Assembly (NCBI GenBank): GCA_051294375.1
Contig: CM119265.1
Location: 21,638,278-21,702,277, forward strand
Source of the DNA: Paraspadella gotoi
Taxonomy: Eukaryota > Animalia > Chaetognatha
DNA: 64,000 nucleotides
Direction: 5' to 3'
Shown one piece after another: positions 1-3,000 of the stretch; within the stretch, counting starts at the first letter, position 1; every line of letters starts with the position of its first letter. A program made the translations under genes and the position numbers. The notes beneath the pieces are model-generated. The model made no database searches and had not been told where the DNA came from. It worked only from the letters and a program-made list of their open reading frames with translations.

Positions 1-3000
1 AAGGCGCCCATGGGATCGGAGCCAGTACTGAGGACGAACACCAGCGGCGTAGTGATGGTCATGTCCTCGTACAGGCTGTGTAGATCCACCGGCGGACTCT
101 CCACGAACTGCTTCCCCAAGTTGACGGTCACGAAGTCCGTCACCGCGGCCACAACCTTCTCCTCTCGGAAGGCTTTGATGAGACACAGTTTTTGAAAGGA
201 CGTTAAACGCAGGTCCCAATGACCCACCACTGCGAAGGAGGAAAGGGGTTTGAGGGGATAGAAAAAGGTTAGGGTCTTTCATATATAACGGATCGATAAG
301 GCCACACTTTCGTCACCGACCAGGATAGTCTCTCTCCACTTCTGGTTCTTTCTTCTTTTTCTTATCGTCTTTGCCCTTGGTGGCGACGTGAGCGGCCTGC
401 TCTTCCTCTTCTTCCTCTTTAGACGGAGGGACGGGAACGTAGGGCGGGGGCTCGGGACCGTAGCCGTCCCATTCGGGTGGATTTAAGCAAACCTAAGATT
501 TCAAAGAGTAAAGGCGAATTATAATAATGACGAAAAGATGCTTCAGGGTTAAAGAGATCCGCAAGAGTAAGGATCGATGTGGTGTTCCTGTTCAAGATGC
601 GAACAGTATTCAACATGCATTATATGCCATTAAAATATAAGCATTCGACATGCTAGCGGTTATGAGACAAAAACTCCATTTTTGTCAAATGATGTTCCGA
701 TAACCATTCGTGAAAAATGAAGCGTCGAGATTATAATAGATGCAAGAGAGCGCGTGCTTAGGAAATCATTACCGAATTCTAACCACCGAAAAGCAGGTCG
801 AAAAATCAAAGAAAAAGACGAAGGTGTGATTTGAATCAAATGCTTACAACGTGCGGCAAACTTAGATCTCTCTCGTCTTCCCAAATTTGAAATCAATTTC
901 CCCTCACCCCCTGCAAAATTCCCGACCTGCGTGTTTCCCAGCGTCAACCAAATGGGAACGGAGTAATACTCCTTCCGGAAATTCTTGAAAGCCTTGCCCA
1001 ACGTGGACATGATGTCACAAGCCAGGCGCCAGAACCGGTCGGAGAGCCAACGGGCGTCGGGCTTGGGGGGATATTCCTTGTCCATGGAACTGCAACCGCG
1101 GAGGAAGAAGTTCCACTCGATGTCGGAGATTTTGCCTTCGCCCCTCATGATTTGCGCGCAGAGCATGAAGGAGAACACGATCTTGTCGCGTTCGAACAAT
1201 CCTCTACGGAGTCGGTGGGAGTGGGGGGGGGAGAGGCGAAGAGAAAAAAAAAGAAGGAAACATTAAATTGGGGGGCGGGAGGGATTTTTTCAACACGGTG
1301 GGATTGACTCCGAAACAGTGATTACCGAAAATAACTTGCGATGGCGGCGAATTCTCAGGAAGCCGTCTATAAACATCCCATCCCCGAAAGAAGTAATAAG
1401 AATCTTGTCAATACTGTTTAAAAGGGTATGTGGAGATGGAAGACTATAAACGGCATTGATTGATCAGAAATTCTCATGGCATCCTTGAAATCCAATAAAT
1501 ATATAATAAATAATAAATATATAATATGAAAAGCGAGTATATTTTTTGCGTACCATGCATATTTCAGTGAACGCATTGTCGAAATGCCACCAGTAGTTCG
1601 CATTTAAGAGCGAATGTGCAGAAAAAACAAAGAACCAAAAAATTACCTGGCGACATTCTTGTACACTGTTATGGTAATGGCGTCGATTAAGATTCTTAAC
1701 CTCCTGAACAGATCATCCGCCTTCGGGGCATTTTCGATACATTGACAAAACAACTGTGACGAGAAGTTTCGTGGCGACAGTTGTGAATTTTTTTCGGGGG
1801 TGTATCGGAGGTGTGATGGGGTAGAAAATGACGCGTGCGGGTCAAAGACGGTGCCATGGAACGAAGGGGCGGGAGTGAAGAACAAAAAGCGGAAACGATT
1901 AACACAAAACATTTTCCGTTACGAATTCTGGGCTTTTTCCCAAAGTTTCTGTTAAAACACGAAAAAAAAACATGCATCTTCCGTCTTTTTGATTCTGCGG
2001 ATCGGGAAATCCACGGGGAAAAATCACCTCGAAATATTCGTGTAAATGGTAATCGTTGTCTGTATTAGGAGAATGCCCAATCTCTTTTTGAGGTCGTCGC
2101 ATTTTTCGCTATTTTCTATGCACATATTAAACAGCTAGGGGGAGATAGTGGGGAAGAATAGGGATTACATGTCAGTAAAAAATTTTTTTTTGCGAATTTA
2201 ATAAACCATTCTTTGCTGTCGTCAAAACTACAATAAAAATGTTAAACCTTTTCTTTCCAGTACCAACGACAAACCTGCGTAAAATATTTGAGCGAGTACT
2301 GGTACATGGGGTCGACCTCGGCCAGGTCGGCCACTACGAAGTACATGACGGAGCCGCGCGTGGCCACCGGGCGATACTTCTCTCTCGCCTCGGAGATGTC
2401 TTTCTCCGTGACTTCGGCGTCGCGCACGCGCACGGAAATCACCGCGGATGTCACTTTGGAGTCGTTGAGTGTGTCGATCAACTCCTCGTCGTCAAGGATG
2501 TTTCCTGAAGGTTGAAGAGATGAATGAGAAAGGAAACAAAAAAAACTTTTAAAAAAAGAACGAAAACTGAAGAAAGAAAGATTCATTATAAACGAAAAGT
2601 CCATCACCTTCAGAATTGAAGAGCAGCTTGAGGATCTTGTCCTCAATGTCTTTGAGCGTCTGCTTGTCGTCGCTGATCTGCTGCATGAGGGTCATTCGCA
2701 ATGACTCTAGGTCAGGACGTTCGAGTCGAACCACATCCGCCAACAGTTGGTCCTCGAGGCCGGATTTGGTCACGGAGAAATTGATAATCGTGACCTTGAT
2801 GCAGACCTCTGTTGGGGTAACCAACGTCATTATTGAGAGAGTAAATTAAAACGGTAATAAAACAGTAAAAATCAATACATTTGCTTATCGAATCCAGATG
2901 TATGAGTCTCACCGGGCAGATAATGCGGGTTCGACAGTTTCGACGTCATGTAGAACTTAAAGTTCTTGTCATAATCGATGTCGGAGTCGCCGAGGCGGAT

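Follow-up and report, generated by a model that had tools for sequence, protein, structure and literature searches.

Can a single dynein heavy chain (DHC) gene supply its motor with two interchangeable versions of one structural element? This question is raised by a 64,000-nucleotide (nt) stretch of Paraspadella gotoi DNA, hereafter the window, whose positions are used for all coordinates. At least its first 19 kb are occupied by a dynein heavy chain gene, which is read on the minus strand, has short introns, and carries two homologous 107-nt exons, A and B, between the same pair of constitutive exons. The evidence presented here makes it probable that these are mutually exclusive tandem exons, with A spliced into the main mRNA and B replacing A in a minority of cells or stages.

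The exons were delimited on the minus strand as follows. The upstream constitutive exon (2275..2504), defined by sequence and translation, ends in phase 0 with ...YFTQ, is followed by a donor GT at 2274-2273, and is covered by a 5904-nt spliced contig spanning 2275-2506 from the sequencing run X1 described below. A 140-nt GT..AG intron (2135..2274), which is removed in the joint 2275/2134, separates it from exon B (2028..2134). A strong pyrimidine tract precedes the acceptor of B (...CCCCCTAG), and its donor is GAG/GTGATT. An intron of 274 nt (1754..2027) lies between B and exon A (1647..1753; acceptor ...GTCACAG, donor CAG/GTAATT), and another of 443 nt (1204..1646) between A and the downstream constitutive exon (927..1203), which has the acceptor ...CCGTAG and a donor at 926-925 that was read from sequence and frame only. 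Exons A and B have the same length and phase, are preceded by AG and followed by GT, and are free of stops in the frame of the gene. Each encodes 35 residues plus the beginning of a split Arg codon that is finished by the first base of the downstream exon. Between them, 19 of 35 residues and 56 of 107 bases are identical, and when every open frame of the window was entered in a self-search, the pair gave the best non-repetitive match within the gene (tblastn E 1.8e-9 and 5.1e-10), a similarity far beyond chance. A preliminary description of the locus had reported two equal-length, equal-phase, stop-free homologous exons with canonical sites, and sequence and translation agree with it. Its remark that copy A is invisible among the open reading frames was mistaken, as both copies appear in the stop-to-stop listing, A at the end of a 91-residue open frame (1643-1918) and B within a frame of 36 residues (2024-2134). 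We conclude that the anatomy of the exon pair is real.

Four public sequencing runs, none of them recorded as RNA, were searched for the splicing products of this region. One, X1 (share 0.59), turned out to hold contigs that are identical to the window and intron-less, and that therefore derive from spliced RNA. X1 is a single run represented by assembled contigs, not reads, a format that can miss rare forms and gives no more than approximate depths, and its contigs were compared over window positions 1540-2510. The remaining runs were uninformative, X2 yielding one 42-nt conserved patch at 2288-2329 and X3 and X4 no alignment. In X1, a 57-nt contig of depth 267 joined 2275 straight to 1753, skipping 521 nt with GT..AG ends. 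A 389-nt contig of depth 280 covered exon A (1647-1756) and continued at 1647 into a loose end made of the letters of 1203-1174; the joint of exon A to 1203 is known from this match to 1174-1203, not from an aligned joint. These results indicated that exon A, with B skipped, forms the main message. Exon B was found in a 438-nt contig of depth 9.4, which contained the joint 2275/2134 and then ran through B, the donor of B and the entire 274-nt intron into A without interruption. When this intron is unspliced, an in-frame TGA at 2026-2024 stands immediately 3' of exon B, and the contig reaches it. Judged by contig depth, which is a rough measure, use of the acceptor of B amounts to a few percent of the A form. 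Both junctions whose comparison had been proposed, 2275 to 2134 and 2275 to 1753, were thus recovered, and the earlier picture of a visible B and a hidden A was reversed in the RNA, where A dominates.

The part of the earlier proposal that stands is the splicing of A with B skipped and the use of the acceptor of B. The B-only message is no more than probable, as its joint, 2028/1203, was not seen among the contigs of this one run. The three-junction standard set out by Hatje et al. (2017, PMC5740500) demands that the junction of each exon bridge the other; here the bridging joint of A (2275/1753) is present and that of B was not seen in X1, and the pair is half validated. Mutual exclusivity is also weakened by the fact that the sole contig containing B retains the B-A intron and carries a stop, and by the result that none of 80 metagenome loci, which include no close relative, had a second A/B-like segment. 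A joint between B and A (2028/1753) was likewise not seen in X1. By Hatje et al. (2017, PMC5740500), clusters are said to consist usually of one ubiquitous and one regulated exon, a pattern that fits a dominant A and a rare B, and joint inclusion that shifts the frame is a described class.

The strongest competing explanation is that B has been retired: long a coding exon, it would no longer be spliced productively, its still-strong acceptor would occasionally give rise to dead-end RNAs that retain the B-A intron, and only A would make protein. We regard this history as possible but rather unlikely. It would account for the 274-nt intron retained in the sole B-containing contig with a stop right after B, for the depth of 9.4 against about 267 for the A form, and for the two copies being found at no other locus among the 80 examined. 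It would also fit the lack of a loose end at 2028 in X1, which had no contig over 1540-1646 or 2135-2274 either; these blanks come from one contig-level run, which cannot establish absence, and they were not used as evidence. Retirement is disfavored by the state of exon B itself, with its open frame and good AG and GT sites, and by the comparison of both copies with their orthologues.

For this comparison a profile was made from the 70 proteins (67 unique), among 120 listed, that have an ungapped 36-residue equivalent of the segment. Exon B scored 67.8 bits and exon A 63.3, the orthologues themselves having a minimum of 43.5, a quartile of 60.5, a median of 67.8 and a maximum of 81.4. At the 17 columns that are at least 70% conserved, B keeps 16 residues and A keeps 14, and B was the closer copy to 61 of the 70 orthologue segments, A to 8, with one tie. 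By homology, then, B is the more canonical copy and A, the exon of the main form, the less canonical one. Since the exon that homology favors is not the exon of the main message, homology-guided gene models would pick the wrong one. Six of the 70 orthologues resemble A more closely than B does, and 32 resemble B more closely than A does; with orthologues nearer to each copy than its sister, each copy has kept different ancestral residues.

Selection on the two copies was addressed with simulations of neutral decay, started from either copy and run for 2000 trials per setting. After 51 random changes, none of the surviving open frames reached the observed scores (0/435 and 0/421), and the same was true after 26 random changes (0/742 and 0/764). 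The differences between A and B fall at 25 of 35 third positions and at 26 of 70 first and second positions (Fisher p 0.0017), and 14 of the 19 shared residues are encoded by different codons. A comparison of the dN/dS type, which had been suggested, gave a proportion of synonymous differences (pS) at saturation and a proportion of nonsynonymous differences (pN) of 0.34. The duplication is old, with both copies under protein-level constraint for most of that time, and because the synonymous sites between A and B are saturated, both were kept by selection for long. The view that these are old, selected copies finds agreement in the orthologue-grade scores, the decay simulations and the saturated synonymous divergence. 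With such saturation, any loss of use of B would have to be very recent. The GC content at third codon positions is 0.57 in A and 0.51 in B, and 0.82 and 0.80 in the flanking exons; values as low as those of A and B occur in 35% and 26%, respectively, of the 35-codon windows elsewhere in the gene, in blocks that include some intron.

Relatives were searched with both peptides, as had also been proposed. A scan of metagenome contigs provided the 80 loci, which encode the upstream exon at 51-78% identity and most of which have no introns at this place. The count of zero second segments refers to the interval between the flanking exons at E < 0.05, and at such identities it carries little information on close relatives. 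At E up to 50, extra matches appeared only in L018, L049 and L054; they were 8-17 residues long and at chance level. What was found instead of paired copies, in three other loci that come from other animals, is a separate single-copy 107-nt exon with identical AG/.../GT boundaries and phase (L038, 4713-4819; L066, 4772-4878; L069, 3762-3868); the introns on either side, about 550-900 nt long, contain no further copy. The lone exon in these loci suggests that the exon is ancestral and that the duplication therefore took place within the lineage of the window itself. In a different comparison, none of 94 protein pairs with at least 90% identity over the upstream 77 residues resembled two isoforms of the same species that differ in this segment.

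Another explanation is that the acceptor of B serves as a regulated unproductive, or poison, splice choice that lowers dynein output, the encoded peptide being irrelevant. The B-containing RNA does carry a stop and stands, by contig depth, at a few percent of the A form. However, a poison choice would neither need nor preserve orthologue-grade coding of 35 residues with exact length and phase, and the donor of B is intact; we consider this explanation improbable. That the exons are alike by chance, or that the pair is an artefact of assembly in which, for instance, two haplotypes were set side by side, can be dismissed with near certainty, since the within-window match has E 5e-10, a base identity of 52% is far too low for alleles, and an independent X1 contig, which differs in 2 letters, refutes it by running continuously through B, the intron and part of A.

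If A and B are mutually exclusive, as we favor, the manner in which exclusivity would be enforced is suggested by their length. The claim that including both exons or neither breaks the frame held when the frames were read through to their stops: with both, the frame shifts and a stop follows 23 codons after B, and with neither, it shifts and a stop is reached after about 60 codons. This frame shift appears to be the visible safeguard. Messages with both exons or neither would be degraded, and frame shift and nonsense-mediated decay together would enforce exclusivity. On this reading a productive B-only message would be made, and the choice between A and B would be regulated by cell type or stage. 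Other known mechanisms were considered. Steric hindrance between splice sites operates below a limiting distance, and U2/U12 incompatibility depends on a U12 consensus; the B-A intron of 274 nt and the ordinary donors GTGATT and GTAATT speak against both. A search for a docking site and selectors, in which no relatives were compared, gave 17 inverted pairs near the exons, short (10-21 nt), mostly A/T-rich and 74-100% complementary, and these appear to lend no support to competing RNA pairing.

The homology data identify the gene as a DNAH6-type axonemal (inner-arm) dynein heavy chain. The 77-residue upstream exon (2505-2275) matched 641 proteins at E <= 0.001 among 764 candidates, and the named proteins in its best 120 matches are mostly 'dynein heavy chain 6, axonemal'. 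The top identity was 82%, and the protein collection therefore contains no close relative. The three best PDB matches of an exon in the AAA1 region (17993-17841) are the DNAH6 chains of 9fqr, 9d2f and 8j07, with 47 of 50 residues identical, and an orthologue, P0008, matches DNAH6 at E 1e-164 versus 1e-98 or weaker for DNAH1 and DNAH2. Searched as single exons in Pfam, A, B and the downstream exon had no match, and the upstream exon had a sub-threshold AAA_9 match only (E 0.0011, 18.5 bits versus a cut-off of 27.4).

The place of the pair in the motor was read from an AlphaFold model of P0008 (32-row alignment, mean predicted local distance difference test score (pLDDT) 73.7), which is a model of an orthologue and not of the spliced protein of the window. 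It comprises a long helical hairpin (helices 2-29 and 38-95), a helix at 103-116, a loop, and helices at 123-144 and 148-165. The residues equivalent to the exon, 109-144, take in the last part of helix 103-116, the loop after it and helix 123-144 in full, with pLDDT 82-93. According to Gleave et al. (2014, PMC4047620), the buttress of the small subdomain of AAA5 (AAA5S) is made by elongation of helices H5 and H6, and the second hairpin consists of H7-H8. With this naming, the pair is predicted to encode helix H8, the H7-H8 loop before it and the end of H7; the upstream exon would code for the beginning of H7 and, in the buttress hairpin, for the tip and the descending helix, and the downstream exon for H9 onward. 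The earlier placement of the segment after the buttress, in the AAA5 small subdomain, is supported by the model together with this helix nomenclature. The AAA5s/AAA5L interface has been named as critical to the way in which ATPase activity, microtubule binding and mechanics are coordinated, and this part of the motor is thought to relay movements of the ring to the buttress and stalk (PMC6600642). An exchange of the H7-H8 hairpin, which lies where the buttress begins, could tune the relay of ring movements to the stalk and the microtubule-binding domain in a subset of cilia or in sperm.

The self-search that found A and B also detected a second tandem duplicate in the same gene, which directly follows the Walker B motif of AAA1. 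Copy 1 (17897-17841, minus strand) and copy 2 (17788-17732, minus strand) are each 57 nt long and encode 19 residues. Copy 1 is contiguous with its upstream exon, and copy 2 has its own T-rich tract, CAG acceptor and GTAAGG donor. Thirteen of the 19 residues are identical between them, 9 of these with different codons, and each copy matches mammalian DNAH6 at 15 of 18 alignable positions. The use of copy 2 alone would need an internal donor, for which GAG/GTTCTG at 17898/17897 is a candidate; inclusion of both copies keeps the frame, and the next exon begins at 17387. This pair may be a second alternative segment. It is conceivable, though on present evidence doubtful, that this DNAH6 gene, in the manner of muscle myosin, has several clusters of alternative motor exons, with two independent swap points and up to four motor variants assigned to different cilia or sperm flagella. 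In that case splicing, and not gene duplication, would tune the mechanochemistry of a single-headed inner-arm dynein.

The probable splice switch described here is of a known kind; its gene and its place are new. A mutually exclusive exon is reported in the cytoplasmic dynein heavy chain gene SmDHC1 of Schistosoma mansoni (Pillmann et al. 2011, PMC3228551), and some DHC genes are stated to have motor-domain alternative splice forms (Kollmar 2016, PMC5100056). In SmDHC1 as in the present gene, a dynein heavy chain exon has been duplicated in tandem, the homologous copies are equal in length, and the exon ends split codons. They differ in that SmDHC1 is cytoplasmic, whereas the gene in the window is of the axonemal DNAH6-type inner-arm class and the exon corresponds to the AAA5S H7-H8 hairpin. 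Similar length, same frame, sequence similarity and a frame shift on joint inclusion are properties that A and B share with the frame-shift-enforced exclusive exons of Hatje et al. (2017), but unlike the pairs validated there they have a bridging junction for A only. As in muscle myosin heavy chain clusters, a large motor would be varied by swapping short, structurally equivalent segments encoded by exons, and the AAA1 pair would make this gene multi-cluster; unlike in muscle myosin, the motor belongs to another family and the clusters have two members only. Such alternative exons are a wider theme of arthropod muscle myosin heavy chains. Daphnia Mhc is named as such a gene by Pillmann et al. 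(PMC3228551). In the literature search, mutually exclusive exons were not found described for DNAH6 or for any other axonemal dynein; cases could be held by the supplements of PMC5100056 and PMC5740500 and by the author's sequence database, which were outside its scope.

A spliced choice between two core motor elements would add another layer to dynein diversity. The diversity of axonemal dyneins is usually explained by paralogous heavy-chain genes. The pair would also amount to a natural experiment on the relay from ring to buttress and stalk, as the hairpins differ at 16 of 35 positions and keep the conserved core; exchanging one for the other in a recombinant dynein would be a way to probe the role of the subdomain in coupling.

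Several further features were recorded in the window. A dispersed repeat of about 100 nt occurs in opposite orientations at 15694-15809, in the region of the dynein gene, and at 48403-48506, 32 kb away, with a six-frame identity of 60-88%. Microsatellite-like runs are present in introns and intergenic DNA (4440-4700, 10880-11060, 20480-20715, 33300-33450, 34500-34700 and others), built of (GAAA/GGAA)n units, read as KERKKERK or FLSFFLSF, and of (GA)n, read as ERERER or SLSLSL. A 299-residue open frame on the plus strand (60120-61016) corresponds to GALT, galactose-1-phosphate uridylyltransferase, with best matches 54-66% identical in vertebrates, amphioxus, echinoderms, annelids, molluscs, a sponge and a priapulid, a spread that points to a poorly sampled animal lineage lacking near kin in the protein collection. 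The longest open frame of the window, at 45844-48153 on the plus strand, encodes 770 residues and has a start rich in Lys, Glu and Ser.

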